Positions 3,472 to 32,681 of a stretch of 36,919 bases of DNA are shown in pieces. The stretch spans positions 1 to 36,919 of the forward strand of contig CAUSGP010000001.1 of assembly GCA_963531075.1 (NCBI GenBank). The letters are read 5' to 3'. Every line of letters begins with the position of its first letter. The first letter of the stretch is position 1. The notes under the pieces are model-generated. The model made no database searches. It was given only the letters and a program-made list of their open reading frames with translations, and was not told where the DNA came from. Both the position numbers and the translations under genes were made by a program. The DNA is from an uncultured Actinomycetaceae bacterium. Its GTDB lineage: Bacteria; Actinomycetota; Actinomycetes; Actinomycetales; Actinomycetaceae.

Positions 3472-3821
3472 TACAGACCTTCTTTCATTGAATCCCTCAA
3501 GGGCATAGACGGTTTAACTCTACGCGAGAAAGGCTCGGGCGTCGCCCAACTCGCCTCGCCATTCAGTCCAAAACCGACAAATTTTTGTACTAGATAAGTT
3601 TTTAGTAGTAGTTGTAGCTCCTGTGGAATCGGTGGATAACCTCCTTTTTCATTGTATTTGCAATGCTTTTGCCTGTGGATGAAACTGTGCGCTGCCTGGG
3701 TGCGACGAACTCAAATCGGTGGATGAGACACTTTCGACCTTGACGAATCCACATGTTGAAACGGGTTATCCACAGGAAGATTAAGCTTCAGCACAGGCCA
3801 ATGCACATCCGATGTGGATTA
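3472..3821. promoter_or_regulatory. oriC (dnaA-dnaN intergenic): DnaA boxes, DnaA-trios and AT-rich unwinding element
   Basis: TTATCCACA at 3766-3774 is a perfect box. Near-consensus boxes lie at 3622-3630, 3631-3639, 3674-3682, 3718-3726, 3745-3753 and 3813-3821. TAG-TAG-TAG-TTG-TAG trios at 3603-3617 sit next to the AT-rich 3578-3602. Confidence 0.92.
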
Positions 3822-9014: not shown

Positions 9015-9818
9015 ATGGCTGATAGAGCTGAACTCGTTAAACGACTCAACGACGAAGGCGATTTTGGAGCTGACTACATTGAAGAGCTTCTCAACATTGC
9101 CGATCTGGACGGTGACATCGAAATTGGCATTGAGGCAGATCGTGCGTCTGTTGCGGTTGTGACCGAAGGTGTTGCTGATCGTAGGCTTAAACGCCTAATA
9201 GGTCAGGGAGGCCAGGTTCTCGATGCCCTCCAGGAGCTTACTCGCCTCGCCGTTCAAGCAAAAACCGGTGAACGGAGTCGTCTCATGCTTGACATAGCCG
9301 ACTATAGAGAGTCACATCGCCAAGAAGTTGCTGCTATTGCGCAAGAAGCTGTCGCCTCCGTTCTCGCCAACGGTGAGCCGGTTTCATTAGCTCCGATGAA
9401 TCCGTTTGAGCGCAAGGTTGTTCACGACATTGCCGCTGCGGCTGGACTTGCATCTGATTCGGAGGGTGTTGGCAATGCACGTCATGTCGTTATTACTTTG
9501 AAAAGCTCTGAGGAACTTTCCGACGTGGAAACAGAAGACGCCGAAGAGGTAGATGCTGAGAAGGCCGTCGGCCTAGATGCCGAAGCGACTACCGAAGGAG
9601 AGAACAAAGATACCGTTAGTATCGAAGCTGAAGACAGTGCTGATGTATATATTCGAGGCACCTTCGAGCTACCAGATAGTGATCAAGCCGCTTCTACACC
9701 TGTACGTACGAATGAAGACTCCGCTGGTAGCGGTAGCTTAAGCAACGCTAAACCACTTGCCAGTAATTCCAACCTCAGCCAAGAAACTAACCACCTAGCC
9801 GATTCGAAGGCTGAGTAA
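9015..9818 (+). CDS. jag: Jag/KhpB (EloR) KH-R3H RNA-binding protein with acidic C-terminal extension
   Basis: EGDFGADYIEELL, LIGQGGQVLDALQELTRLAV, R3H motif PMNPFERKVVHD; GAAAGGA RBS. Confidence 0.92.
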   Translation: MADRAELVKRLNDEGDFGADYIEELLNIADLDGDIEIGIEADRASVAVVTEGVADRRLKRLIGQGGQVLDALQELTRLAVQAKTGERSRLMLDIADYRESHRQEVAAIAQEAVASVLANGEPVSLAPMNPFERKVVHDIAAAAGLASDSEGVGNARHVVITLKSSEELSDVETEDAEEVDAEKAVGLDAEATTEGENKDTVSIEAEDSADVYIRGTFELPDSDQAASTPVRTNEDSAGSGSLSNAKPLASNSNLSQETNHLADSKAE

Positions 9819-9825
9819 ATCAGTC

Positions 9826-10470
9826 GTGAACGACAAGAAGATGCCAGTGGAAGCCCCTCCCGAGGGAGGGGCTTCCCAGTTTGGCGATGATGTATGGGAC
9901 CAGTTACTCAGCTATGCAGGAATGATTGAAAAGGAGGGCGAATTACGCGGTCTTGTCGGACCCCGCGAACTTCAGCGCTTATGGACGCGTCACATCCTTA
10001 ATTCCATGGCAATTCTTCCTTTTATTCCAGCTGGTGTAGATGTTGTCGACGTTGGTTCGGGTGCTGGTTTTCCGGGTATCGTTGCTGCCATAGTACGCAA
10101 GGACCTTCGTTTTCTTCTTGTCGATTCAATGGAACGTCGGGTGCAGTGGCTGAACGACGTTGTTGCGGCCCTATCTATCCCTAACGTTGAAGTTATTCAT
10201 GCAAGATCCGAGGACCTGATCAATGCCGTTAGGGCTGACGTCGTTACGGCGAGAGCGGTGGCAGTTTTGAAGAATCTGATTCCATTGACAATGCCGTTGT
10301 TGAAAGGTGGTGGTTCCTTAGTTGCACTTAAAGGCGTACGTGTTGATAACGAGATTGATGAGGCAATCAGTATATTGCGCGAGTACAACGCGAAATGGGC
10401 TGACGTTCACTTTGTTACCCCTTTTGGAACGCATGAGGAGACGAGAGTTCTTGAAATTCGGAAAAAGTGA
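9826..10470 (+). CDS. rsmG: 16S rRNA m7G527 methyltransferase RsmG (GidB)
   Basis: RGLVGPRE..RLWTRHILNS, VDVGSGAGFPG, VTARAVA, LKG. Confidence 0.96.
   Translation: MNDKKMPVEAPPEGGASQFGDDVWDQLLSYAGMIEKEGELRGLVGPRELQRLWTRHILNSMAILPFIPAGVDVVDVGSGAGFPGIVAAIVRKDLRFLLVDSMERRVQWLNDVVAALSIPNVEVIHARSEDLINAVRADVVTARAVAVLKNLIPLTMPLLKGGGSLVALKGVRVDNEIDEAISILREYNAKWADVHFVTPFGTHEETRVLEIRKK
9849..9876. other. Perfect 13-bp inverted repeat in the first codons of rsmG
   Basis: ggaagcccctccc-ga-gggaggggcttcc, followed by cagttt. Confidence 0.8.
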
Positions 10471-11072
10471 CTAAAGCGTATGTACCTAATGATGCTTAAC
10501 AGTTGAGATTAAGTTGTCTTTATATTGTTAAATACCATTTAAGGTAACTTATAACGTTCTAGTTCATTATATTTATTTTGATCTTAATTTTATCGACGTA
10601 ACTATCTTAGGATGATATTTATAATATCTAAACTAATAGGTTGTCACTATGATGTGGCAGTAAAATCTTATAGTTAACTTAGTTAAGTAACATATAGAAT
10701 GTTTGAATTTGATCTTGATTGCGGAACTATTTCAATGTTTAATAGCTTAAACGGTTTTTTAATAATTATTTTCTGATTTCATATGCCTTTACCTACTTAC
10801 ATAGTCCGTTTATTTCCATAATTAGCGTAATTCTCGTTTTAACTTATCCTTTTATTATCGTTTTCTTATTTCTCTGCTGTTCACTACTATCTTTGTTCTT
10901 ATTTTATCTATATATAATGTGGTCAAATTGCAATCGATCTCTGGGGTTTAGCTCCACTTTTGCTTTCTAGTTGATCCGATAGTTCTAACGACGTGTAACA
11001 TGTACTTTATGACAACCTAACCCTAAACTAAGTACGATTAGTCTAGTATCTAAACTTTAAATTAGATTTTTG

Positions 11073-11088
11073 CGTTTCACGTGAAACT
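11073..11088. promoter_or_regulatory. parS site 1
   Basis: cGTTTCACGTGAAACt, the 14-bp actinobacterial parS palindrome. Confidence 0.93.
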
Positions 11089-13290
11089 TTCGATGTCTAG
11101 TAAGTTGACAGACTGTTAGTTGACATTAGTGGCGATAGGTCACTGACCACATTTACTGTCTGATTTCAACTGACCTCTTCCAGTACCGTGTGAATATCGC
11201 TAAAAAAAGGGAGATCCGATCTGGTGCCAGCGTTTTGGTGGCAGTGAGGAAACTGTGTTTATGATCTTATTGATACCTAGGGTGCGTTGGAAATGGTTGC
11301 TGCTGAGTTCGTTTGGTACTGCGAATAATGACTGGTGTTGGAGGTATGCGATTTCATTCAGAAGAAGACGGGATGCGTGCGTGCAAAAATTTTTTCAAAC
11401 CGAGGTAGTGTTTGTTAGTGAACTTAAATAGAAGATTGAGGGTTCTCTTCAGTTTTTAGTAAAGAATAGTTTCTTGTCAAGTGAGAATGGGATGGGTTAG
11501 AGAATAGGTTTGTAAGTTTAGGGAACCAGGAACTCTGTTAGAGCTGCAGGTAGTATCTCTCTACTGCCATGAATGCACTGATAAAAGGTTGCTGCACCGA
11601 AAGCAATTTTGGCGATACTAATATTTGACGAAACTGGTTGATTGGGCTCACGTAGCTCTGTTTGTTCTTCGACTTTTGGGAAATGAAGTCAAGTTGCCAG
11701 TATGCTTCAGATTGAATGTAAAAATTTTAAAAGGTCTTTTTGAACAAGTTCCGGTCGGATTCACATAGCGCGATTCTACTAACAGACCAATTAAGCGACG
11801 GAAGCAATCAGGAACACCGTTAGTATCGATTCGATAGTTCAGATACATAGTTGTTTACTGCATTGATTTCCGTCGTGGGACATATACTGCTCTATAAGCT
11901 ATTCGATTTCTTCCTAGAGGTCTTTAACAAATTTCGGAGACATTAAGATAGCTGGTGGCCATAACGTCATCGAATAGATAACAGCCATGTTTAAATTACA
12001 GCACTGATAAAGATCATTGATTAAGTATTTGTTGGAGGCCGATACAGGAGTGTGGCTGATACCGGAGAGGCACTGCTATTTGTAAACCTTATAACGTTTT
12101 GCTTGTCACCAAGCTCTACTGACCAACGTATTTGATATCAACTAGGTAGTAATTGTATATAGCTTATATCGGATTGTATTATTCGCCTGAGGTAGAATAA
12201 CGACTTACTTAAAGAGTGCATTAACTCGCTTTCTGTGAATCTCAAGAAATGACGAGATTGGACACCAGTCGTGTTGCTCAAAGTGACAGACAGCGCGGTA
12301 TTCATAGATCACCTGAGCGGAGATTCTTGCTTGAGACAACAACGACTACGGTTAGGCTAGTTTGATATTTACAATCTCCAAAATTCGATTGCAGGTCAGT
12401 ATCAGTCATTAATACCTAATGTTCTGTGAGGGACAATCCGCCGTGAGCCGTTGCAGTGATCAACGCATCAGCCGCGTCTGGTTTAAGTTGGATATGATAA
12501 GCTCACATACTACTGATCCATTTGATCATTGCAGAAGACTAGCTAAGAGATTCTGGACGTGAAGGTGAAATTGCAGAGGATTCTTATGTCCGTAGAGGCC
12601 ATCTACGTACCGCATATTTGTCAAATATGACCGCTCCCGTTTCTATTGACCTGTGTTTCCCATAGCGACATGTAACTTGCGGTGGGTCTCATCAGGCAAG
12701 GAAGTAAATTATCCAACCATCAATGGCTTCTTTGACACGGTATGAAGGTATCACCGAACGTACAAAGTAGATGCTAAAGGGTCACGGATCACTGAGCATG
12801 TCAGTGAACGTAGACTCCAGGTCAAAGCAAGATGGTCACGAATCCAGTCGTAGCGCAGAGAAAGGACACGCGTCGAGTTCCACTTGGTTTTTCGCCGATA
12901 CTGAGCTACTTGTGAACTCATCACAATCATCTCTAACTTACCCCTTTTGCACCTAACGGAAGTAAATTATTTGGTAGGTAGCTTATGGTGGTAAAGCGTA
13001 CTGACTTGACTATTGACTAGTATCCTTTATAAACGAGCAACCAACTTCGACCGCGTGTAATTCAGATATCGTTTAACTGTATTAACTATAAAGGAGATAT
13101 TTCCCTGTCGTGTGATGCGTACTTCGCTAGCCGTTACGATTGCCGTTTACAAACAGCACCCAGTAATCAGACTAGGTGTTGTTAATGTTTCAGATAACTT
13201 GAGTTAACCACGGCGCCACATAACTGAGTATTGCCAAGACAAATACTAAAAATTAGGACTGTGTAACAGTCGAATGGCCATGCTTGCTGT

Positions 13291-13306
13291 TGTTTCACGT
13301 GAAACA
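13291..13306. promoter_or_regulatory. parS site 2
   Basis: TGTTTCACGTGAAACA, the perfect 16-bp universal parS. Confidence 0.96.
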
Positions 13307-14310
13307 CAACTGACTCTAAATAATATCGACATATCAAAAATTTTGAATGGGTTAGTTCGATGCACTGTTGATGTGTATAAGCTAGGGCATATGTAACCTA
13401 TATTTAGGTCGAATTTCGCTAGTATAATATCAGCGAAAACGAACTTCTAGAACGGTGTGAATGTAAATCGTTAAGTAACTCTACGGTGCCAGAGACGATA
13501 CTAAAGGTCATCCTGTGATTTGATAGCGATGCTAATAGTGAATGTTTCTAAGTATAAATGAAGTAACGATACTTCTATCGGTAAGTGCCAACGTTAGTCG
13601 TAGAACCTCGACGAACTACAGATATACCTATGACTGTTTTGCTTGAAGACCTTTGATTACAGGTATCCAAGGTATTCAAGTTTATATAGACAGCAAACAA
13701 AACACATTTTATAGCTGTTCTTGACATAGCTGACTTATATCAAACCAATCAGTCAATAGAAAAGCATTGTCTGTCAAGGTGAGATCATACAGAAACAGTG
13801 GTGTAATTAGATGGAGGTTATATTTATTTGCTAAGTTTTTTTGCTTAATCTAGAATCGATCTAATTGAGTGTGTCTTGGACAGAGGCTTTACTTTGTCAG
13901 TTAGTTACCCTTCAAATCTAGATGTAAATTTGTAAGTTCGAATATCAATTTCCTCGTATTTTGATTGATTTAGCAGCTCATAGCGTCAATTGCATGACGA
14001 GTTTGTAACAAACAAATGAGTTAACGTAGTAGTCTAAAGATACAAATCTATAGTTAATTTGGCAAGACTTCTGCCGCTGCAAGATAAGTACTTTTGCAGG
14101 AAGGGTATACTTTAAGCAGCTTCGATTTGCATACGATGATACTGGGTGTGCCATAAAAGATCGTAGTGTCTGTTGGCTTGAAGCTGCGTTAGCTAAAGAA
14201 ATTACGGACACTGTTTCTCTACCAAGCTGCCTCAAGATGTGGCTATTGTTGGATAAAGGAAAACTGAAAAATATCTAGTCTAATAGAATACAAAAGTCCT
14301 GGCAGGCGTG

Positions 14311-14326
14311 CGTTTCACGTGAAACG
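14311..14326. promoter_or_regulatory. parS site 3
   Basis: CGTTTCACGTGAAACG, a perfect 16-bp palindrome. Confidence 0.95.
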
Positions 14327-15110
14327 TGGAATTTAGCTTAAGCAATTGCTTCAAGATTCGCAGGTAATAACCGATATAGCCACCCCGGAAGGCGTCGCAC
14401 CACAAACTGAGGGTACTGTCGTTGTGTCACAAATGGTATCAGGTCGGTTGGGCTCTGATAATCGAATTAGTTAGAAGTTCTCTCTAAACCAAACGGGCAG
14501 TTTGTGTATCACTAAAGACAGTCAGCAAACTAATGCATAGATTGTTCAGATTTGGCTATTGACGGCAATGCAATAATTACTGATGCCGGGTACTGTAAAG
14601 TACGCACTATCGAGCTTACTGTTTATTCAAAGTACATATGTAAGCTAGTCGTGCGTTACTACCAGCTTCTCCGTTTGGTACGCCTAGAAAACTTATTTTA
14701 AATAACTAGTGATTGAACTAAAGCGGACCATATCGATTTAGTCCTCTAACATTAATACAGACAATAGAAAATGTAAGTTAATAGATGATAGCTGCATGTA
14801 TGTAGCTATCATTTCTGGCAATGTCTCTACTGCCTCAGCGGCTGGTTGTCGCTAATCACTCTAAGCGCGTGTTGATCTTGTTGATCGAGAACATTCAATC
14901 AAACTAAGAAACTTAGGCTTGCAGATCTGAGAACATAAGTAGTAAATGAATATTAATCGCATTTGGACAAGATAAACTGTTCATTTGGGCACTCTCGACC
15001 ACTAGGATTTCATTAGCTGCTTCGTTTTGCACCTTTCGGTCCTAAAGATCAGTAGTTGGGTTACTTAATGCACGAAATAAAGGGAGTGAGGATACCTGTA
15101 AAGGATAACG

Positions 15111-15126
15111 TGTTTCATGTGAAACA
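15111..15126. promoter_or_regulatory. parS site 4
   Basis: TGTTTCATGTGAAACA, one central mismatch. Confidence 0.88.
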
Positions 15127-15620
15127 GAATGTCAAAGAAGAACACCATTGTTTGATTATAAAAACGAAGGACGTAAATTGGTTCTGGCTGTCCCGGGCTG
15201 AATCGATGGGTTAAATTAGCTACGAACTAATTCATTAGTAGTTGGTCGACTTCTAGTTCCGGGTATAAGCAAGAGGTTTGGCAATGCCTTATTCAAAGTT
15301 GGCGACTTTTTCTTTAAAATTTGCGTATAGATACTAGCCGGAAGCCTCAGGACAAAATTAGGTAATAGAATTTTTGTACGAAGAAACAACATTGACTTGT
15401 ATACAATAAGTCTAATATTACACACGAATTGGCTTTAGAAGGGTACTTAATGCCCGAGTTAACTAAGTCCAGCTAGATCTGTAGGGGCAGACAACTAGAC
15501 TATAATCACGATTACCGCTCGCAGTTCCTTAGTTTTATATTATCGCCTAACAGTCTGTAACGCAGATGAGCATTAGGCTCAACGTGTTTAAGTGTTTGAT
15601 AGTTGTATATGAACTGAAAG

Positions 15621-15636
15621 GCTTTCACGTGAAAGT
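15621..15636. promoter_or_regulatory. parS site 5 (symmetric variant)
   Basis: gCTTTCACGTGAAAGt; the outer G/C pair is swapped in both arms, preserving a 14-bp palindrome. Confidence 0.7.
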
Positions 15637-15901
15637 GTCACAGATAGATAAACTGGCAAAACCTCATGGCAACAGACGACCTTAATATGTCGAAGCTTAC
15701 GTTCATAAATTATAAACAGAGCGCACGGCTTTATTAGAGTAGCCATATTTCCTTAAGCGAATATTGTGAAGAAGGGTTTTAGTAGTTTCTCCACATTCAG
15801 CTCTAACGCCTAGATATCATCGATGGCTGAACTATATTTGTAAAGTAATCCATAATTAACTAGCTACTGTCAGAAGTTGGTATAACTCCTTGTGTAATCT
15901 G

Positions 15902-15917
15902 CGTTTCACGTGAAACA
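15902..15917. promoter_or_regulatory. parS site 6
   Basis: cGTTTCACGTGAAACa. Confidence 0.93.
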
Positions 15918-16854
15918 TTCAGATGTCTAGGAAAGTAACGGTTGCCAATAGTATATGTCACCACTCAAAGCCGTGGCTGTGTGATAGAAGCCTACATTCG
16001 GTAATTGGTCTATTTGGAGCAGTGTAGAAATCAAGTTGTCGATAGGCTTCAAATTTTACCTATTAGTACTATGAGAAGAAATGAGAATGAAGATCTGCTG
16101 TATCTGGTAAAGTTGCTGGGGTACAGGTCATTAGAATAGGTTAAGATTATTCGGCGAATTCAATAGCCTTGTGCTGTAAAATTCATACTGACATGTGGAG
16201 GTGCTGAAAATACTAATGTTATTGCTCAATCGGAATGCTGGTTGTGAACTATCTGAAGTAACTGCAATCTATATAGTTGTTGTATAAACCATATTTATTG
16301 AGGAACTACTAGAGTCTTGCACCATGAGGAATGTAGGTGCATTACGTTACTAGTATCTGCAGTGAGTCGTTGGTAAACTAAAACTATTAATCACACACGT
16401 CATTGTTGCATGTGCATAGCGTACCTCGTTGCTGTGCTTGGACCGTTGATCGCAGCCAGGTAAGGTTTAAATGACTCTATAGGAGGACAGTTTGGTAGAT
16501 ATATACTATCCTCTACTTTCTGAGCTAGTAGTTCTTTGACATGGAATACGGCAGGCAGCTCGGATTGTTTGGCGTGACGTATTATGCGTAAGCGAAAAGC
16601 TATAAGACTCTAACTTTCTGATAGCGAGCTTAAGCTAATTCTCGTCGCTGATCTGACCACCGTACTCGATAAACGTCTGGGACTATGTTTCTTCTATCTC
16701 GTTGAGCTGAAAGATTAACAGTTAATGATCAGTTTTATCAATAAAAGAAAAGGAAGTGAATGAATCTAGGCTGTAACTATCACGTTAAGAACGAAGATAG
16801 CCGTAAGTTTACAGAAAGCGAGTGTCCTCTAAGCCGGAACTTCCAATACCCAAA

Positions 16855-16870
16855 GGTTTCACGTGAAACA
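16855..16870. promoter_or_regulatory. parS site 7
   Basis: gGTTTCACGTGAAACa. Confidence 0.93.
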
Positions 16871-18306
16871 TGTTGGCGCGACAGGTCGGATCACCTATAT
16901 CAAATGATCCATTGTGATTAAAGGCAAAGTTAAGGAAGTTCTTGTCCGTAAAAGACTGCGATAGAGGTTGGTATATAACTTGACTACCGCAGTTTATTTT
17001 CTGTAATGATGTTAAGGGGGTGATGCAACGGCTTTTAAAACTGCTACTAGTTTAATTGGGATGCTAGTTCGCTATGCTTAAAAATAAGGGTGTGTGGATT
17101 ATTCAACCTGGTATCAGGGTGGCGTATGGAATAAAGAACAGCATAAGAATATAACGCTTACGTGGAATTAATAACTAGGGCATGCGTAGAAGCTGTCGTT
17201 AACTTCGTTGTAAAGGACGTTGTTTGCACGGAATCCAGAGTAAATCCTTTTTATGAGCCTGTTTTGATATCAGTTCCTTTGCCACCTGATACTTAGTTTC
17301 GCAGTGCACGAATCTTCCCTCTTCGCGGTTATCCGCAGGTTGGAAACGCTTCTCTATTTGTTTCGCACAAAGTTAATTCGGCCTGTGTGTTGCTTGGCTC
17401 TCGCACTCTGTGTCGTTTTAGAACTTCTGCTGTCTGACACAGTATGAGCCTTGCCCTTCGGGTCTCTGGGACTCCGTGCGGCTATATGATCTTCCTTCTG
17501 ATAAATCTGCATAAAGTTTCTGGTCGATGTCATCGATAAGGTGTTCTGACCAGGGACTACAGAATCAGATCCAGGTATGAAAAGTATGCGAGTACATTTT
17601 CTCGAACGATATGCAGAGATCTTATAACCTTGTGCAAGTAGTGCGTTTTATACGTGTACGTTATTCTTAACTTTTGAGCGTGGCTGGTGTAGAAAAGCTA
17701 GGTTTCGACGTTTCAATAACTTGAATGCGAGAATTCACACTATATACGTACAAGAATAAAATCTGCTCGGGTCTTCTGCCGATGGTTTCTGCAACAGAAT
17801 GGTTGTACTCGGAACGTCAATCGGACCAGTGCATTATCCGAAGACCAAATGGGCCGTGCCGGTTAGAATTCTAACCGGAGTACTAAGCAGATGAGTGTTT
17901 AATGGAAGTATCCAGTCCGAACTAGTCTTAGTGAACTCTAAAGAGAATCCCACTATAGAGAGTAAATCAAGGAATGGATGTTCTTCGTCGAGGTGAAGAT
18001 ATTCTTTCTGAACTAGGTGGGACTCGTCAAAACGTGTTGTTTTTTCACACAATGCACGTACGTAATCTCGAACAAAGACGACTTCTAATTGATACGGGGT
18101 GTGACCGTTATAGAGCACAGTGCTTCTTGAGTACTGCCGAATACGATGCACGGGGTATGGATATGGCGAATGCTGTGCCACGACCAAAATTCCTTGAGGG
18201 TATTCAAATCACACTTACTGACAACGATCTCTCTATCGGCGAGATTTGACTATGCAGATAGAACACCGTAGGCATAATTCAGAATTTCCTGGATTGGACT
18301 TAGTTC

Positions 18307-18390
18307 TGTGGAAAACCTGAACGAAGAGCACGGTGTGGATAGGCCAATTTCAATGTGTGTTTTGCGTAGAATGTAGTGAGACGAGAGGAG
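18307..18390 (+). promoter_or_regulatory. Putative parAB promoter with two DnaA-box-like motifs
   Basis: TGTGGAAAA 18307-18315, TGTGGATAG 18334-18342, -10-like TAGAAT 18367-18372, RBS GAGGAG 18385-18390. Confidence 0.5.
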
Positions 18391-18397
18391 TGGATAC

Positions 18398-19351
18398 GTG
18401 AGTGATCCCATAAGCAAGGCGCGAGGGGCAACCATGCGGGTGACCGAAGAGGAAAGCCCGTGGGATCGCCTGCGGGGTGAAGGGTCTCCCCTTGCTAATA
18501 GTCTGGCTGAAGACATGAAGAGACTTGACGCAATTGGTGGATCCAAGTTTAGGTCTCCTGCGTCAACTAGGATTATCGCAATAGCCAATCAAAAAGGCGG
18601 TGTCGGAAAAACTACTACTGCTGTCAATATGGCTGCCGCTTTGGCTCAAGGCGGTTTGAACGTTCTTGTGGTTGATGACGATCCGCAAGGCAATGCCTCT
18701 ACTGCTTTAGGCGCTAGTAGAGACGAGGATGTTGCAACCCTATATGATGTACTTGTCGGAAAAGCGACAATGCGTGAAGCTATGCAGTCAACAGAAAAGC
18801 TTAAGAATCTATTCGTGGTTCCCTCGTCGATTAACTTGTCACTGGTTGATGTCGAGCTTGCTGATCAAGACGATCGTATGACAAGACTTCGTGACACCCT
18901 CCGTCAAGGGTTGAATGAGATTGCTGCGCAGGGGTTTTCCTTTGACTATGTATTCATCGATTGTCCCCCGAGCATGTCACTTTTGCCTATCAATGCTTTG
19001 ATTGCTGCCAAAGAGGTGCTGATTCCGGTTCAGACTGAGTATTATGCCCTGGAGGGATTGACTCAGCTTCTGCATACCATTGAAGGTGCTAGCGCTTCGC
19101 ATAATCCTGAATTGCGCGTAAGTACAATTCTGCTCACGATGTCGTCAAAGAATACAAATCTTTCCGCTGAGGTTGCGGAAAATGTTAGGGAATTTTTCCC
19201 TGATCAGACGCTTGAGACGGAAATTCCAAGGTCAGTTCGCATAGCCGAATCACCATCTTATGGAGAGACCGTCATCACATTTGCACCCCGCTCCAGTGGC
19301 GCTATCGCTTACCTGGCCGCGGCACATGAGTTGGCTAGTCGAGCCGAGTAA
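18398..19351 (+). CDS. parA: Chromosome partitioning ATPase ParA/Soj
   Basis: Deviant Walker A NQKGGVGKTTT, DPQGNAS, FIDCPPS, PVQTEYYALEGL, IPRSVRIAESPSYG. Confidence 0.97.
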   Translation: MSDPISKARGATMRVTEEESPWDRLRGEGSPLANSLAEDMKRLDAIGGSKFRSPASTRIIAIANQKGGVGKTTTAVNMAAALAQGGLNVLVVDDDPQGNASTALGASRDEDVATLYDVLVGKATMREAMQSTEKLKNLFVVPSSINLSLVDVELADQDDRMTRLRDTLRQGLNEIAAQGFSFDYVFIDCPPSMSLLPINALIAAKEVLIPVQTEYYALEGLTQLLHTIEGASASHNPELRVSTILLTMSSKNTNLSAEVAENVREFFPDQTLETEIPRSVRIAESPSYGETVITFAPRSSGAIAYLAAAHELASRAE

Positions 19352-19364
19352 GGAGTAGGTAGAA

Positions 19365-22300
19365 ATGGCTGAGCGTAGACGCGGTCTCGGAAGGGGGATC
19401 GGTGCTCTCATTCCGGCAGCGCAGAGAGAGACAAAGGACCGTCCGATCGACGTTTTCTTTGGCAGTGGCGCGACCGCGGAGTCTGAAAACGACAAAAGTG
19501 GTAGTAAAAAAGTGTCATCGAAGTCGAAGAAGGTGAAGAAATCAGCAAAAGCTGAGGGAAGTACCACGTCGAAGCGCTCACAGGCACCAGAAACTGAGGA
19601 TGTTCAAAACGCTACATCTTCCGGGCAAAGTGCGGATGGCAGGTCAGCGATTTCAGATGAAGCAAAAGGACATGCTTCCGGTAAAGGCGATGTGAGTGCT
19701 AACGTCAAAGCTAAAACAGGTACTTCTCCAAAGAAACAGCGCAGCAAGGATGACTCCTCCGAGTCGACTAATCCGTCGAGTTCAGGCAACTTGCCAGAAG
19801 AGACTGATCGCAGTCGCCATGATGTAACGCAGCAAGTCACGACTGTTAATGGATCCGCTTCTGAAAGACAGTCGAAAGACAAGTCTGGGTTTGTTGGAGC
19901 GAATGAACTCGCAGCAAGAAGTGCTGCCACAGCGGGTAAAATCTCTGAGAAGGCCGTATCCGTGTCTGCTGGAGAAAATGCTGCAGTTGATACTGGGCAA
20001 TCAGATGATGCAGCCAGGCCGTCAGTCAATATAACCGAAGAAGTGTTTGTGAGTGAACGAGACGACGTCGTTGGACGGGCTGGCAACGACGGACGGACTG
20101 ATACTGATGGGAAGGAATATAGCCCTAAACAGGCCGGAATTCATGAACATGTGGACGCCCCTGAGGTTGGTGTAGAAGAACGTAGTGGCGCCGTCAAACA
20201 CAGTGATGCCGTTAAACAAGACGGTAATGACAAACGCGGCCGCAACGTTGAGCAAAGTGACTCTAGTGAATGGTCGGCTCCAGAAGAGACCGCCGGTACA
20301 TCTCTTGATGAGCGAAATGCCATAGCCTCGGTTGATGAAGTCGGAATCGTTCTTGGTGACGACAAGAAAGTGGCCAGCGAAAGCATAGAGGTAGCCGATG
20401 CGGAAGAATGGGTAAACGGTAAGGCCGAGGAGGCAGCCTACGCTGACCGAAAGGTAGCTGACGCTGAGAGAAAGGCAACCGACGCTGGCAAGACTGCTGA
20501 TACAGATCACCCAACTGATGAGACTAGTAAGTCAGTTGCTGAAGTTGGTGATTCAGCCACTGAAGTAGACGCGTCAGCTGTTGAGACAGGCGGATCAGCC
20601 ACGACCGATATTATCGTTGCGAATGCCGACGTCGCTGCTTCAATTCCTGGCACTTCTACTTCTTTCAAGACTGATATGCGAGTGTCTGAAAAGACACCTG
20701 AGGAGAGCAAAGCACATTCTGTAGATTCCCCAGCGACTCTTGACGAACCTATCGTTACTGGCGTCGGGGAGGCTCCTACTTCTGTTGAGCATATTGCTGC
20801 TGTTACCGCAGGTGCTTCTGCCTCTGGCGAACGCACTGCTCCTGCCGCTAACACAGTTCGTCGCAAGACGAGTGTGCGAGCTTTTGATCAATCAGGCGCT
20901 GTTGAGTTTTCTGAGGAAATTCCTTCGGTAGAAGTGAAGCCTAGTGTTAGAACGACAGTTTCCGACGTCGGCCGGGTTAATGATAAGCAATCTGGTAACG
21001 CAGAAATTGATGATGCTGGAACGTCGGCTCAAGCTGCCGACAACGGAGCGTCACCTGCCGACAACGGAGCTACCGATAATGAAACGCTGTCTGAGCGTGA
21101 TGGTGAAGTACTATCTGCGGAAGCTAGCGGAACATCGGATGGAAACGCCGGTGAAACACCGTTTGAAAATGCTGCTGAGACAGCGCTTGAAAGTGGCGGT
21201 GAAGTACCGATTGAAAATCAGGATGGAACGTCAACCAAGGATGAGAATGTGAAGCTACATGAGGTTGATGGCGGGACGCTCCGTACAGACGCGGCAAACG
21301 TCGAAAAGTCCGTGGATACAGGCGCGAACCTGTCCGGTGCATTTGAGGTTTCGACCGACCACGACGGAAGGTCCGTTGACGAGGAGAATGGAAGTTCTGC
21401 CGCCAGCAGGATTGAAAGTACTAATTCGACTGACATTCCTAAGGATCCAACCACTGCAAGTGGGGATGCTGCTTCTATCGTGTCGGTCGAAGATCCCGGA
21501 CAACCGAATGGAACGGTTCCTGCAGACCGCGAATCCGAAGGGTCGGACTCCGACGAAGTCGACAGTATCGATGCGGATGATGAGGGGCTTGTCGAGGTTC
21601 CGGGTGCTACGTATGCTGAACTCCCGCTCGACGAAATAATCCCGAACACCCGACAGCCGCGAAATGTCTTCGATGAAGAGGAACTCGAAGAATTGGCTGC
21701 TTCCATCCGCGAGGTTGGGATCCTCCAGCCGGTCATCGTTCGTCCTCTATCCGCTCCAATTCCTGGACAACCGAAAGCTCGCTATGAGCTCATTATGGGT
21801 GAACGCCGTTGGCGCGCTTCCGAGTTGGCCGAGACCGGAACTATTCCCGCAATCATTCGGCATACGCAAGATGAAGACTTGCTTAGGGATGCGCTTCTTG
21901 AGAATTTGCATCGAGCAGAACTCAATCCGTTGGAAGAAGCGGCCGCCTACCACCAGCTTCTTGAAGATTTCCAATGCACACAAGAAGAGCTATCGCGTCG
22001 AATTGTAAGATCGCGCCCGCAGATTTCCAACACTTTGCGGCTGCTCAAGTTGCCTCCGTTGGTTCAACGCCGGGTGGCTGCAGGGGTATTGTCTGCCGGA
22101 CATGCGCGCGCATTGCTCGGTTTATCCGATCCTGGGGCAATGGAACGACTCGCTCAAAAGATCGTTTCTGAGGGGCTTTCTGTACGGCAGGTTGAAGAAA
22201 TCGTTGCTCTTGGTGATGAACCGACGGCTTCACCGACTAGTTCGCGTCGGCGTACTAAGCGTTATGGGCCCGAGCTCGGCGAATTGTCAACCAGACTGGC

Positions 22301-22442
22301 TGATCGTTTCGACACCCGTGTCAAGGTTGAAATGGGGGCGAAGAAAGGCTCCATTAAGATCGATTTCGCTTCGATTGACGACCTTAACCGAATTTTGGAG
22401 GTTCTTACGCCAGGAGAAACCGGTGTCGATGTTGTGGAGTAG
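19365..22442 (+). CDS. parB: Chromosome partitioning CTPase ParB, 1025 aa, with low-complexity insert of about 700 aa
   Basis: N-terminal RRGLGRGIGALIP peptide. The core begins at about residue 741: NTRQPRNVF, GILQPVIVR, GERRWRA, HTH TQEELSRRIVRSRPQISNTLRLL, SAGHARALL, C-terminal KGSIKIDF. AAGGAG RBS after the parA stop. Confidence 0.96.
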   Translation: MAERRRGLGRGIGALIPAAQRETKDRPIDVFFGSGATAESENDKSGSKKVSSKSKKVKKSAKAEGSTTSKRSQAPETEDVQNATSSGQSADGRSAISDEAKGHASGKGDVSANVKAKTGTSPKKQRSKDDSSESTNPSSSGNLPEETDRSRHDVTQQVTTVNGSASERQSKDKSGFVGANELAARSAATAGKISEKAVSVSAGENAAVDTGQSDDAARPSVNITEEVFVSERDDVVGRAGNDGRTDTDGKEYSPKQAGIHEHVDAPEVGVEERSGAVKHSDAVKQDGNDKRGRNVEQSDSSEWSAPEETAGTSLDERNAIASVDEVGIVLGDDKKVASESIEVADAEEWVNGKAEEAAYADRKVADAERKATDAGKTADTDHPTDETSKSVAEVGDSATEVDASAVETGGSATTDIIVANADVAASIPGTSTSFKTDMRVSEKTPEESKAHSVDSPATLDEPIVTGVGEAPTSVEHIAAVTAGASASGERTAPAANTVRRKTSVRAFDQSGAVEFSEEIPSVEVKPSVRTTVSDVGRVNDKQSGNAEIDDAGTSAQAADNGASPADNGATDNETLSERDGEVLSAEASGTSDGNAGETPFENAAETALESGGEVPIENQDGTSTKDENVKLHEVDGGTLRTDAANVEKSVDTGANLSGAFEVSTDHDGRSVDEENGSSAASRIESTNSTDIPKDPTTASGDAASIVSVEDPGQPNGTVPADRESEGSDSDEVDSIDADDEGLVEVPGATYAELPLDEIIPNTRQPRNVFDEEELEELAASIREVGILQPVIVRPLSAPIPGQPKARYELIMGERRWRASELAETGTIPAIIRHTQDEDLLRDALLENLHRAELNPLEEAAAYHQLLEDFQCTQEELSRRIVRSRPQISNTLRLLKLPPLVQRRVAAGVLSAGHARALLGLSDPGAMERLAQKIVSEGLSVRQVEEIVALGDEPTASPTSSRRRTKRYGPELGELSTRLADRFDTRVKVEMGAKKGSIKIDFASIDDLNRILEVLTPGETGVDVVE

Positions 22443-22586: not shown

Positions 22587-22782
22587 GGTCGGTGAAGGTG
22601 CCGATGCATTGTGGATGTCCGATAAACGAGTCATCAGAGACACCACAACAAGGCAGTTCGTGTGTAGGAATGCAGAGGCACAAAAAGCTACGCGTAGCAG
22701 CGTGAAAAATGGACGGCCACGCGTGGAATAAACAACTAGACTACGAACGGCTTCACAACTGTTGAATGACAGAGCGAGACGC

Positions 22783-22890
22783 TGCAACCACGGGAAGACA
22801 TGCAACAACGGGAAACTGAGCAGCCACGGAAAACTGAGCAACCACGGGAAGACGTGCAATCACGGGAAACTGAGCAACCGCGCGAGGCTT
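22783..22890. repeat. 18-bp tandem repeat x5-6 between the convergent parB and ddl-like genes
   Basis: tgcaaccacgggaagaca / tgcaacaacgggaaactg / agcagccacggaaaactg / agcaaccacgggaagacg / tgcaatcacgggaaactg / agcaaccgcgcgaggctt. Confidence 0.92.
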
Positions 22891-26759: not shown

Positions 26760-26775
26760 CGTTCCACGTGAAACG
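26760..26775. promoter_or_regulatory. parS site 8 (outlying)
   Basis: CGTTCCACGTGAAACG, one mismatch at a position variable in the universal parS consensus; intergenic. Confidence 0.8.
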
Positions 26776-27246: not shown

Positions 27247-28944
27247 TCACGTCTTCTCCCGCTGTCTTCTCCCTCTGTCTTTACGATGGCACGCTATAGA
27301 CACGGCCGCGCTAAAGAGACTGTCGACGTCGGATGAGCCATATTTCGTATCCGTCAGGCCCAAAGCGCCGTCGACCGCTTCGATTGCTTGAAGAAACTGG
27401 CCACGCCGCAGATAGCGTCCGACCTCGCCTTTGATTGATCGCAGTTCTCAGGCGCGCTCGCGGATGAGTCGGGGCGAAGGGACGAGCCACGTGCACATTT
27501 CTCTAGGTTCCAGCTTGAGAATGCCTCCACCGTAGCTGCGTCCAGACAATTCGGCGCTGAGCATGCTTGCCGAATTGAGGCCGGCTAAGGGAAGGAGCTC
27601 TGTTCCAAGTTGGACAAGGCCGTCTAAAAGGTACACGCCGTAAACTGAGTTGAGATGATGTACACGTGCTGCATTCGCAACGATACGTGGAGAATCTGTG
27701 TTCATGGCCGTTAGAAGAAGATTGGGAACCGGAGGCAATGGAACGATGTACCACGGTTTGCGAGCCCGGCACTTGTACGCGAGATCGACGCCAATTTCAC
27801 GGCCCATTTGCACGTAGCTCTTGGCTGCGAAGGAAAGTGGCTCGCGTGGGCGGAAAAGCAGAGTTCCTCTTTCCTTCTTTCCGAGTCTGGTCAGCATAGC
27901 TGAGGTAAGCGACAGTCCATGTAAATGAGCGCTTCCCGAGGGGCTGATTCTCACGAGGTCGCGGCGCTCAAGCGCTAGCTCACGTGCGTGAAGAGGTGAC
28001 AGTGTGAAATAGCTGTTGTTTCCTGTGACCGCGCCGAGTCTGATTGAGCCCCACTCGCTGAGCGGCGTCAGAGCCGCCCTATTGCGCAGAACAGCAAGCT
28101 TGGCACGAGCAGGAGCGGGTGCAAGCAGTTCCGTCCACTTGCCTTCCGGATTGAGCGGAGACCATGTGTTCTCAGGATCGGCTGCGGATGAAGGTGAAGA
28201 GAGGTCGGATAGATCGCTTTCATCACGAGCTCGACGTATCGTGGCGTGTGATGTTGAGCCCCCGTATCCGTCAGCCAGAAGCAATATGACGTTGGCTTCT
28301 GCCTCTTTGAATACCAAACGTTCGAAGAAAACCAGTTCAATGCTCGCGAAGCTGTTGAAGAGGAAACGGCGAATTGGTGCCGCATAGTTGACGCTGAGCA
28401 ATTCGGTTGGGAGGACGAAGCCCAGTCGCCCTCCGGGACGAAGGAACTGGCTGGCATGAACAATGAAAGGGGCCCAGCTTGAGGCCAGAGCTGTCAGTGA
28501 GACTCCCGCACGGGCAGCAGCTTCTCTAGCTGCTGTTCGCGATGTGCCGTTGAAGCCTTGATATCTGATGTAAGGCGGATTGCCGATGACGGCGTCGTAG
28601 ACCGCATTGGCGGGAAGGTCAAAGAAATTAGAGACTTCGATTCGAGCCTCTACGCCTATGGTGGTAAGGCGTTCACGAGCTGTTTTCGCGGTTGGAGAGT
28701 CGATATCGACGCCGTTAATCTGCGCGCGGAAGTTCGGACCGGGCCCTCCAACACAGCTCGCTGCTGACAGCGTGAGAAGTTTTGTGGCTGCGGGGAGAAG
28801 AAAAGCTGCATCGCCGCAGGATGGATCAAGGATGCGGTCGCTTGCACAGCGCACCGCCCAATCCACAATGGACTTTGCAATTGGAGCGGGAGTGAAGAAG
28901 GCTCCGCGCGCTTTGCGAGTGTCGCGAGTCAGTGCTTCAGGCAT
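27247..28944 (-). pseudogene. N6-adenine DNA methyltransferase (gamma class) interrupted by an in-frame TGA at 27448-27450
   Basis: RKARGAFFTP, motif I ILDPSCGDAAFL, motif IV VIGNPPYIRY, GRSYGGGILKLEPRE. The same frame continues 66 codons past the TGA (ELRSIKGEVGRYLRRGQFLQAIEAVDGAL...) to a TGA at 27247-27249. Confidence 0.75.
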
Positions 28945-30089: not shown

Positions 30090-32561
30090 TCATTCGACGC
30101 TGATTTCCGCGATGCTGATTCGATACTTAGACTTGTTCTGTTTCGATAGTTCAGGGAACCAGAGAACAACGGTGTCTGTGGCAATCGTTTTGGGAGCCGA
30201 AAGCTTCAAATTGGGCTTGAGCGCCGACTCGGCAATCACGTCACCAGTATTCGGGGATGAAGCCGAAGAATTGCGCCACTCGACCTTGCCGCCGGAGTAC
30301 TTGGAATCGATTTTTACGGACGTCACTTTCGACTTGCCAGAAAGCTTGATGGCCAGGCCGATGCCATCCTTGTTGCCAGAGTATTTCGAATTTGCGTACC
30401 AATAAGATTCCCAGGTGGTGGACGTCTTCTGATCCGTCAGGTAGGGAATGAGGGAAGGATTCTCCTGCTCATCCACATTGGACGGATCCGATTGTGCACC
30501 GTACGGATTGAGCAGCGTGATGTTTTCGACCTTTGGTTGCGGCAGGTTTTCGGCCTTTTCTTCTTTCGTTGGGCTCGCGGAAGGCTTTTTTTCCTGCGAG
30601 CTTGGAGCCTTCGTAGCGGGCAAAGAACGTGTTGAGGAGGATTTGTTCGATGGAACGCTGGTGGGCGAAAAGAACTTGAAAACTGCCCAAAGTCCGAATA
30701 CGACGATGAGCAAGATGGCGAGAGCCACCACTACTTTCGAAGGGTTGTACAGCGGCTTTTCGATTTCCTCGCCGGCCAGCTCTGCGCCGGGCAACTCGGT
30801 TTGCTGAGGGGACGGAGCTTCGCCGAGAAGCCACGGGCTTTGGCTAGTCGCCTGAGCGGTGGGTATCTGCACGGTGTCCGAACTCGCGGCATTCGCAGCC
30901 TGTTCAGAAGCCGGAAAGAACGACGGCGGTAACTGCGACTCCCCATGCCCCGAACTTCTACCGGTCTGCTGTGCCGGAGAATCCTGAGCAGCCGCAGCCG
31001 CCATGTTCTGAGTGGGGGCGTTGTCCAAAGACCCGTCGGGTACTTGTGCAGCCTGCTCATTTGGCCGCTTTTTTGAAGAGTCCGATTGCTTAGAAGGTTT
31101 GCTATTTGATTGCTTTGGAGTTTTGCCCGTCGGTTGCCCGGAAGGCTTGCCGGTCGACGTCGTCTTCTTTTGAGCCTTCCCGTTCTTCCCCGCTCCGGAA
31201 GCATTCTTCGCCGCCGCCGACGGAGCGGCCCCCGCCGATTTGACAGCACCGGCAGCTGCGCCGGCTGCGATCGATGTCCCCGTGGCTTCGGCCGCAGCCT
31301 TTCCGGCTGCTCCGCCCTTTGCCGCCCCGGCTTTCTTCTTGGACTTTTTGTCGCGCCCGCCCTTCTTATCGCGTACGGCCGCGGTTTCGATCGTCTTCTC
31401 GGCGGAATTGGCGAGGTCCTCGGGGCCATCGGCAATCGTGACGTAGTCGCCCTCGGGGGCATCGCCGAAGTCTTCCGGGTGGAAAATCGCCGTTGCCGAA
31501 GGATCGACCGCTTCTGGATGCTCCTCGGCGAAGGTGTTAAGACTCGACCATTTCGGCTTCATTCCAGCGGATTTGACGGCGTCTCCGGACAGAGGGTCTA
31601 CCTTGTTTCCGCTCGAAGCGTCTCCCGTCGACGCGATTCCGGGCTGTGCCGACGCGCCGTGTGACGGGGCGGGCGAGGCTCCGTTCGCATCGTGCTCGAC
31701 TCCGTCGGCATCACGCTCGGCTCCAGAAGCTTCGCCAAAAGCAGCTCCGGCCGCTTGAGCTCCGGCTTGAGCAGAAACGTCGGAATCTGAGCCGTGCGGT
31801 TCGCCGACCGACGGGAATTCGGAAGGCTCGACGGAGCCCCAAGGAGCGAGCTCGCGGACGAGATCAGCGGGTGAGAGAGCCCCCAGCCCGCGGAGCTCCC
31901 GAGTGCACGCGCTGCGCAGCGCATCGGGCAATGAGCCGTTCTCCGTTGCCATGCGCAAAACGGCGTCGGGCTTGGCTTTGGCATTCCCGGTGAGCAACCG
32001 GGCCAAAAGGATCGAAATTCCGCGTGACTCCATTCTATCGGCCTGTGAACTCGACATTGAGTCCGTGCGAAGGCTGGCCAGGGCGGCATCAGTGCCCAAG
32101 CCGTCGATAAAGACTTCTCCCAGCACTCCTACCCTGACCTGTTGAGGCGTCAATTCGAGATGGCGAACGCCTCGCGCCCGCGCGGAGTTAAGAGCGCTCG
32201 CGACCTCGCCCGTAAGCGCCTGGGCCTGTCTAGGATCGAAGGGAATGCCGTGAAGATAGGCGGAAAGCGGTGTGCCCAGAGGAATCTCGGTAGCGACGTA
32301 GTACGCGGCCGGATCCTCGCCGACCGAGAGTATGCGCACGACGTGCGGGTCGTCAATGAGCGAACTGCGCCGGGCAGCGTCCAGCACTTCGCTGGCGTTC
32401 GAGTTGCCCGGATCCAACGCCAGGATCCGCAATGACGTTCCAAGCAGCGTATCGACGGCGTTCCAGGCTTGAACTCCGGGATAGAGCGGCTGTTCCGAAA
32501 ACGGCTCGGTAAGCTTGTAACGGCCGGCAAGAATTTGACCAGCTTCGACGAAGCTATTCAT
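30090..32561 (-). CDS. Membrane-anchored pseudokinase (like the C-terminal kinase-homology part of actinobacterial MviN/MurJ) with long low-complexity linker and extracellular domain
   Basis: LAGRYKL, WNAVDTLL, VLDAARRSSLIDDPHVVRIL. RHLELTP and IDGLG replace HRD and DFG. One TM segment VVVALAILLIVVFGLWAVF. Start at ATG 32561 after GAAGGGAG. Confidence 0.75.
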   Translation of the reverse strand: MNSFVEAGQILAGRYKLTEPFSEQPLYPGVQAWNAVDTLLGTSLRILALDPGNSNASEVLDAARRSSLIDDPHVVRILSVGEDPAAYYVATEIPLGTPLSAYLHGIPFDPRQAQALTGEVASALNSARARGVRHLELTPQQVRVGVLGEVFIDGLGTDAALASLRTDSMSSSQADRMESRGISILLARLLTGNAKAKPDAVLRMATENGSLPDALRSACTRELRGLGALSPADLVRELAPWGSVEPSEFPSVGEPHGSDSDVSAQAGAQAAGAAFGEASGAERDADGVEHDANGASPAPSHGASAQPGIASTGDASSGNKVDPLSGDAVKSAGMKPKWSSLNTFAEEHPEAVDPSATAIFHPEDFGDAPEGDYVTIADGPEDLANSAEKTIETAAVRDKKGGRDKKSKKKAGAAKGGAAGKAAAEATGTSIAAGAAAGAVKSAGAAPSAAAKNASGAGKNGKAQKKTTSTGKPSGQPTGKTPKQSNSKPSKQSDSSKKRPNEQAAQVPDGSLDNAPTQNMAAAAAQDSPAQQTGRSSGHGESQLPPSFFPASEQAANAASSDTVQIPTAQATSQSPWLLGEAPSPQQTELPGAELAGEEIEKPLYNPSKVVVALAILLIVVFGLWAVFKFFSPTSVPSNKSSSTRSLPATKAPSSQEKKPSASPTKEEKAENLPQPKVENITLLNPYGAQSDPSNVDEQENPSLIPYLTDQKTSTTWESYWYANSKYSGNKDGIGLAIKLSGKSKVTSVKIDSKYSGGKVEWRNSSASSPNTGDVIAESALKPNLKLSAPKTIATDTVVLWFPELSKQNKSKYRISIAEISVE

Positions 32562-32681
32562 GACACTCCCTTCATGGACACGGGCTAGGACTCTTAACCA
32601 CGTGTGCGACATTGTCCATCCTACCGGGCAAACTTGATAGGGTCAGGCTCGGCTTGTCTGGAGGTTCGGGGCCGGCATCAT

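Follow-up and report, generated by a model that had tools for sequence, protein, structure and literature searches.

We analysed a stretch of 36,919 nucleotides (the window) from an uncultured Actinomycetaceae bacterium (assembly GCA_963531075.1, contig CAUSGP010000001.1), in which the open reading frame at 19365–22442 encodes a ParB protein of 1025 amino acids (aa), as had been stated in a preliminary description of this DNA. On all features that can be tested from sequence the product is a chromosomal type Ia ParB, and what appears to be new is a giant N-terminal arm with a conserved island on an otherwise ordinary protein. It is probable that the ParABS system is a normal one and that the arm is an extreme form of a variable linker, a tolerated tether grown by in-frame duplications in a zone centred on the parS sites, which would act through three short motifs. 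Growth by duplications, a constrained arm, the three motifs and a fast-changing zone were all observed. Our literature searches, mostly at the level of abstracts, did not turn up giant ParB arms for this genus, although a prior mention is possible. The coordinates of the features are collected in Table 1.

The ParB core and its arm

The three domains of the core were recognised by Pfam: ParB_N (PF02195) at residues 751–849 (E-value 5.4e-31), the helix-turn-helix (HTH) domain HTH_ParB (PF17762) at 852–948 and the dimerisation domain ParB_C (PF23552), which was folded in the structure model, at 969–1014. TIGR00180 gave 183 bits against a cut-off of 58, and solved Spo0J/ParB chains matched the core with E-values down to 4e-47. 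The motifs of the CTPase domain are intact (GERRWRA at 812–818 and ENLHR at 846–850), the first being the arginine patch GERRxRA described as the ParB/Srx CTPase signature (PMC7022226). By counting from the conserved S172, N178 and R204, residues R884, T890, K895 and G912 were mapped to positions 173, 179, 184 and 201 of Caulobacter ParB, where the RXXG positions of parS-type specificity were defined (PMC7383237); the HTH thus reads RTKG. The gene is the single match in the genome and lies directly behind parA, close to parS sites and to the genes of the origin region (dciA, recF, dnaN, dnaA, rnpA, yidD, yidC, jag, rsmG, the long spacer, parA, parB, ddl and trxB). Because the motifs are intact, the core would be expected to form a CTP clamp that loads at parS, while the tip would stimulate ParA.

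The protein shares its three domains, arginine patch, parS-type specificity residues and a parAB operon adjoining rsmG near dnaA with the Spo0J/ParB clamps of B. subtilis (6sdk), C. crescentus (6t1f) and T. thermophilus (1vz0), but it differs from them in its unstructured N-terminal region of about 740 aa and in a conserved internal island without known counterpart. In M. xanthus ParB the unstructured N-terminal region is described as residues 1–35 (10.1101/2025.03.14.642875). We rejected a Noc identity: the ParB-family fold is common to both, but TIGR04285 gave 207 bits, below its cut-off of 315, and where the tip of Noc is an amphipathic membrane helix and its specificity residues are QKKR, the giant-arm protein has a ParA peptide and RTKG. 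The closest titled records (L051–L055, core identity 83–95 percent) are Peptidiphaga gingivicola, Actinobaculum sp. oral taxon 183 and uncultured Actinomycetaceae; we infer that the window and its close relatives (hereafter the genus) belong to Peptidiphaga.

In agreement with the preliminary description, the tip peptide is separated from the core, beginning at about residue 741, by some 700 low-complexity residues poor in aromatics. Residues 36–740 contain 13.3 percent S, 13.2 percent A, 10.2 percent E, 9.9 percent D, 8.9 percent V, 8.5 percent G and 8.2 percent T, and F, Y and W together make up 1.6 percent, so that there are almost no aromatic stickers. The arm had been called acidic, which holds near the core (net charge of the last 215 residues, −0.18 per residue) but not throughout, the first 100 residues being net +0.06; a basic tip and acidic base were found in all five full-length members of the genus and in 53 of 72 linkers outside it. 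The disorder expected earlier was borne out in both structure models, where the arm was a coil with a predicted local distance difference test value (pLDDT) <50. The core reached 70–94 in the alignment-based model, whereas the single-sequence fold of the entire ParB was of low confidence even within the core. A Pfam scan of the arm gave no match.

The arm is real, very likely translated and predicted to be disordered; a search of sequencing runs listed no RNA run that contains it. Its frame, noted earlier as open for over 2 kb, contains no stop codon across the arm, compared with 7–94 in the other five frames. In three sister-species pairs the ratio of non-synonymous to synonymous substitution rates (dN/dS) was 0.33, 0.37 and 0.48 for the arm and 0.01–0.03 for the core; between the window's genome (G000) and G002 the arm comparison was saturated. 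Between G001 and G002 the arm could be aligned, whereas the rsmG–parA spacer was nearly unalignable, with only blocks of about 50–200 bp. Near-identical proteins of 1018 and 1032 aa occur in other assemblies and differ by copies of a 7-residue unit. An internal start near nucleotide 21585, where the core begins, had been named as a possibility: there is none there, the nearest in-frame start is a GTG at 21480, in G001 the 60 codons adjoining the core contain no start, and no conserved start codon near the core was found across the compared genus loci. Nor was the linker lost in relatives, the arm being kept in all genus members looked at. Among contigs over the locus, the 11 indels listed for run X1 all fell in the spacer (11208–17262) and none in parB, a weak hint only, as they come from single contigs at a depth of 2–4 and the arm is poorly covered. 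Two observations count against the arm's reality or constraint: the dN/dS values come from pairwise alignments of low-complexity sequence, and two frameshifted arm fragments (P0124, P0125), probably sequencing errors, are present in the database.

Table 1. Positions of the parB locus features in the window.
Feature	Position	Strand	Remarks
Zone of low synonymous GC	9015..22442		jag, rsmG, parA, parB
rsmG–parA spacer	10471..18397		7,927 bp, 39 percent GC, non-repetitive
Seven parS sites in spacer	11074..16869		14-nt cores at 11074, 13292, 14312, 15112, 15622, 15903, 16856
parA	18398..19351	+	Walker-type ATPase, 317 aa
Shine-Dalgarno sequence	19350..19355	+	AAGGAG, 9 nt 5' of parB ATG, overlaps parA stop codon
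parB	19365..22442	+	chromosomal type Ia ParB of 1025 aa; giant N-terminal arm
Putative ParA-binding/stimulating peptide	19374..19415	+	RRRGLGRGIGALIP, residues 4–17, in family consensus
Second family-conserved motif	19440..19463	+	RPIDVFFG, residues 26–33
Arm, predicted disordered	19470..21584	+	residues 36–740, about 705 low-complexity residues; tip net basic, acidic near core
Tandem repeat in arm	20431..20487	+	21-nt unit, 2.7 copies, in frame
Genus-specific conserved island	20859..20936	+	RRKTSVRAFDQSGAVEFSEEIPSVEV, residues 499–524
Duplication in arm	21034..21070	+	21 nt (7 codons), copy number varies among close relatives (1018, 1025, 1032 aa)
ParB core	21585..22442	+	CTPase domain, HTH, C-terminal dimerisation domain; starts at G741
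Outlying parS site	26761..26774		one mismatch

Conserved motifs and arm length in the family

The N-terminal ParA-binding motif is described as consisting of aliphatic and basic residues (10.1101/2025.03.14.642875). Residues 1–33 showed no amino-acid change between G001 and G002 and two between G000 and G002. The island in the middle of the arm, which the preliminary description did not pick up, is about 25 aa long and follows the pattern AFDQxGxVxxSEE, with F, D, Q, G, V, S, E, E and V invariant in all six genus loci. Its dN/dS in the three sister-species pairs was 0.05, 0.05 and 0.00, making it as constrained as the core. By its simple pattern it was found in six of 101 family loci, all six in the genus, and in none of the 95 others; all 121 of the close proteins examined have it too. 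When 1.84 billion proteins were searched with a profile, six matches were returned, namely two full ParBs, two frameshifted arm fragments and two unrelated repeat proteins; the last, the only matches outside ParB, were judged to be due to chance, and membership of the island in another family was rejected. The distance from tip to island ranges from 132 to 505 aa in the genus, and that from island to core varies too, with at least 116 residues in six loci.

Most likely the island would serve as a short protein-docking motif by which the arm is pinned at its middle. An arm–arm or arm–core clasp is a possible partner, at rather less than an even chance, and a polar anchor or SMC comes a little behind; ParA is an unlikely candidate and anything else a still less likely one. 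Two facts weigh against this view of the island: the 121 close proteins represent only about four species, and the monomer model did not place the island against the core. The predicted complex of a ParA dimer with ATP/Mg and a 36-aa island peptide scored 0.00, which counts neither for nor against.

Arm length was taken as the distance between the GLG motif and the core in a family set of 101 loci (the window and 100 further stretches). The five full-length genus loci gave 733 (G000, the window), 511, 507, 488 (G004) and 321 aa (G005); the sixth, G003, is cut by a contig end and was left out. Outside the genus the arm measured 40–281 aa, with a median of 148 (87 of 95 loci, where the GLG motif was found). 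The 1027-codon frame of the window was the longest among the 150 family matches listed, of 250, and also among the 150 class matches listed; the latter include two unpublished genomes (G297 and G290) of ordinary lengths, and the result is independent of both. Scoring of 8000 candidates with lengths of 1072–3060 aa gave only two ParB matches, both with ParA domains, a result that is weak by the tool's own caveat. By precomputed Pfam annotation, P0127 and P0128 are RsmG–ParA–ParB and ParA–ParB fusions, 1122 and 1169 aa long; both were seen on single contigs and may be frameshift artefacts.

Other ParBs of Actinomycetaceae and Georgenia-like bacteria have the same tip peptide, an RPxDVFF motif, a low-complexity linker that is first basic and then acidic, and a parS cluster at rsmG–parA–parB; they differ in their far shorter linker, which lacks the island. 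Moreover, 44 of the 101 family loci carry a parS site inside the linker, translated as VSRET (for example L036, L042, L044, L048, L147, L150, L190 and others), while the giant arm of the window carries none. Where the spacer is <600 bp such sites were seen in 32 of 37 loci, and where it measures at least 2 kb in two of 36; in family loci with VSRET, the linker is an alternative home for the centromere.

A general inflation of disordered regions was rejected. In 150 orthologues from 21 sampled 20-kb stretches, compared with the outgroup G020, the median internal length difference was 0 (five longer by >30 aa, two shorter), and open frames of IF2 (975–992 in the genus, 918–1069 outside) and Rho (713–766 and 569–819) overlapped the outgroup range. 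The largest gain relative to G020 was that of DnaA (+147), and the gap from parA to the parB core was 1,862 nt longer. Co-expansion of DnaA was likewise dropped, because an apparent exact match on open frames vanished with true starts, by which its N-terminal part measures about 168–290 aa in the genus and 126–386 aa in neighbours. The DnaA of the window (3819–5801, minus strand) probably starts at a conserved MSDGNP near 5801 and would then have about 660 aa, not 705; its domain II is long, 147 aa above G020, and longer still in some neighbours. Also relative to G020, Jag (9015–9818) has a C-terminal tail longer by 93 aa and RecF (985–2325) an internal span longer by 32 aa.

The spacer, its parS sites and the fast-changing zone

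The preliminary description had spoken of an 8-kb parS field. The spacer does have nearly this length and holds seven sites, but the sites cover 5.8 kb. Five of them are perfect, one has one mismatch and one has two. With the outlying site at 26761 the total is eight; 0.15 sites were expected from shuffles, none of 100 of which reached eight. The spacer is the longest stretch of the assembly free of open reading frames (ORFs), at 7.4 kb, the next being 1.5 kb. No Rfam match at E 0.1 and no large repeats were found in it, and a structured RNA or a repeat array was rejected on these grounds. Its dinucleotide odds are near 1 (TA, 0.97; genome, 0.51).

Measured to the ParA ATPase domain, the spacers of the genus are 8.1 (G000), 8.2, 8.7, 9.2 (G004) and 2.6 kb (G005) long, and those outside it 0.1–6.0 kb. 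They contain 6–9 parS sites in the genus and 0–17 outside, where 36 of 93 genomes have at least six. Because the spacers are long while the count is not raised, the sites of the genus are spread out, not multiplied, and their tie to arm length is weak. Both measures were available for 90 of the 101 loci (11 were dropped for a missing motif or a contig end; FastTree tree, midpoint root). Spearman's coefficient between arm and spacer length was 0.34, or 0.22 without the genus. The correlation of arm length with parS number that had been suggested earlier did not appear (independent contrasts, r=0.06, p=0.57, n=89). Of the proposed co-expanded ParABS variant, a weak link to the spacer was left, but the parS count is neither raised nor does it follow the arm.

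GC content at four-fold degenerate sites (GC4) was 0.40–0.49 in jag, rsmG, parA and parB, compared with a median of 0.71 and a first percentile of 0.51 over 1061 ORFs, and it recovered on both sides. This trough is family-wide, GC4 being lower near the sites than far from them in 70 of the 72 loci that had a sufficient number of genes. It was also present in 42 of 46 titled loci (drawn from 51 of sufficient length; the genomes are partly the same), where it was symmetric and had disappeared at distances above about 3 kb from the closest parS. Trough and divergence peak together span Actinomycetaceae and Micrococcaceae (window 9015–22442, L051–L130). When 20 disjoint pairs of the same genus (from 25 pairs) were compared, four-fold divergence of rsmG, parA and parB exceeded that of dnaN, recF and dnaA in 19, with a median of 1.48 times, and in nine close pairs every class of change was elevated, GC–AT changes most. 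The divergence peak moves with the position of parS: in six of eight pairs with parS in or beyond parB this gene was more diverged than rsmG, compared with four of 17 with upstream parS (p=0.02). In these zone statistics related genomes do not count as independent, and the position test is the sole control for differences in expression. ParB is described as coating and shielding kilobases around parS (PMC7333895), and ParB occupancy may be what causes the zone. A parS-centred compositional trough was not found described in the same mostly abstract-level literature, and here too a prior mention is possible.

Some neighbouring features were also noted. In G005 (L035) dnaA, which lies nearer parS behind the short spacer, has a synonymous GC of 0.28, whereas other genus members have 0.72–0.88. 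An Eco57I-like adenine methyltransferase gene (27448–28944, minus strand) of low synonymous GC adjoins the outlying parS site at 26761. An 840-aa protein (30090–32612, minus strand) gave a weak N-terminal Ser/Thr kinase-like match alone, and an 18-bp tandem repeat of about five copies lies between parB and ddl (22777–22879).

Competing explanations and clamp gating

In the explanation we consider probable, the arm would be an entropic tether, its exact sequence and length loosely constrained, with the ParA peptide, RPIDVFFG, the island and the gradient from basic tip to acidic base kept within the arm region. The core would load at parS and slide as a CTP clamp while the tip peptide stimulates ParA; the acidic base might be held away from DNA and the basic tip scan the nucleoid. 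The arm's end-to-end distance would be about 19 nm and its contour 250 nm, as computed with a polymer scaling law. The arm would have lengthened through small in-frame duplications, themselves observed, because parB sits in a zone of faster, AT-shifted change, and the same zone would have inflated the spacer. Arm and spacer may have grown together because they share location and ancestry, not through mutual matching; as the fast zone can account for their joint growth, a functional coupling is not needed. Several results weigh against this explanation. The correlation of trough depth was weak for arm length (rho −0.25, p=0.03) and absent for spacer length; the zone is family-wide, yet giant arms occur only in the genus; lineages such as g17 have an equally deep trough with arms of just 142–174 aa; and low expression or a relaxation of codon selection, in place of mutation, could lie behind the trough. 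Intergenic gaps also show a mild genome-wide excess relative to G020 (51 longer, 28 shorter, p=0.013). Because the trough tracks arm length only weakly and giant arms are confined to the genus, the zone is permissive for giant arms but not sufficient.

An adaptive co-expansion, in which a longer arm bridges clamps at widely spaced parS sites or reaches ParA across a larger complex, appears unlikely to us, and part of the evidence does speak for it and against shared location as the cause. Arms are longest in the genus, which also has four of the longest spacers (8.1–9.2 kb), and in those four genomes the median parS gap is 554–1762 bp, compared with mostly <600 bp elsewhere. The correlation of arm with spacer length proposed earlier was found in independent contrasts (r=0.33, p=0.0015; without the genus 0.24, p=0.03), and the sisters G004 and G005 differ in the same direction for both, G005 being the genus minimum in arm as well as spacer, which suits adaptive coupling equally. 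However, the signs of the contrasts agree in just 41 of 85 (p=0.83), parS number is unlinked, and the pairing of lengths is uneven (G004, 9.2 kb and 488 aa; G000, 8.1 kb and 733 aa; G086, 6.0 kb and 222 aa). Moreover, only one or two evolutionary events are involved and the spacer behaves as neutral sequence. More doubtful again is a selection of arm length for reach, via the island, to DivIVA/Wag31 at the pole or to SMC, the long spacer then being a coincidence. A polar anchor as such keeps some probability because C. glutamicum ParB is reported to bind DivIVA, such binding being described as genus-specific (PMC9298525, PMC7022226), and the core-like constraint on the island and its distance from the core in all six loci would suit such reach; on the other hand, both distances along the arm vary freely, and the island matches nothing beyond these ParBs.

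It is very improbable that the functional protein is short, through an internal start or removal of the arm, and the long frame vestigial. The arm does contain 16 further in-frame start codons and acidic disordered arms can be proteolysed, but a strong Shine-Dalgarno sequence and coupling to parA mark the start at 19365, no internal start near the core is conserved, purifying selection acts along the arm, and the ParA peptide would be lost although residues 1–33 are nearly invariant. An assembly artefact or foreign insertion in this metagenome-assembled genome, which consists of 291 contigs, is 83 percent complete and has low GC in this region, is effectively refuted by the near-identical proteins in other assemblies, by long arms in genomes that are 99–100 percent complete and by the low GC extending to synonymous sites of flanking housekeeping genes.

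Short conserved motifs joined by long, fast-evolving disorder are also known from PopZ-type tunable linkers and the N-terminal tails of CenH3. The giant-arm ParB resembles these by analogy, as short motifs and a long disordered stretch at the centromere machinery, but there is no homology and no sign here of condensate tuning or positive selection. For M. xanthus it is reported that clamp closure juxtaposes the two ParB tips and thereby restricts ParA activation (10.1101/2025.03.14.642875). A Gaussian-chain estimate, a toy model with assumed separations of 3 and 10 nm, put the closed-to-open concentration ratio at about 470 with an arm of 25 aa, at 3 with 130 aa and at 1.2 with 705 aa. By this estimate a 705-aa arm should erase clamp-closure gating of ParA activation unless it is re-pinned, and the expected loss of the gate makes the island a candidate clasp or anchor. 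A bolder possibility, to which we give limited credence, is that ParB-coated DNA forms a centromeric zone of accelerated, AT-biased change that moves with parS, in which spacer and arm were enlarged until the arm outgrew the gate, and that the island arose in the arm to re-clasp the arms or anchor them, as a second, outer ring or to a new partner.

The relatives of the window, with arms of 321–733 aa, form a natural series that makes the clamp-gating model directly testable. The trough in synonymous GC together with the divergence peak points to an influence of ParB occupancy on local mutation, repair or recombination.

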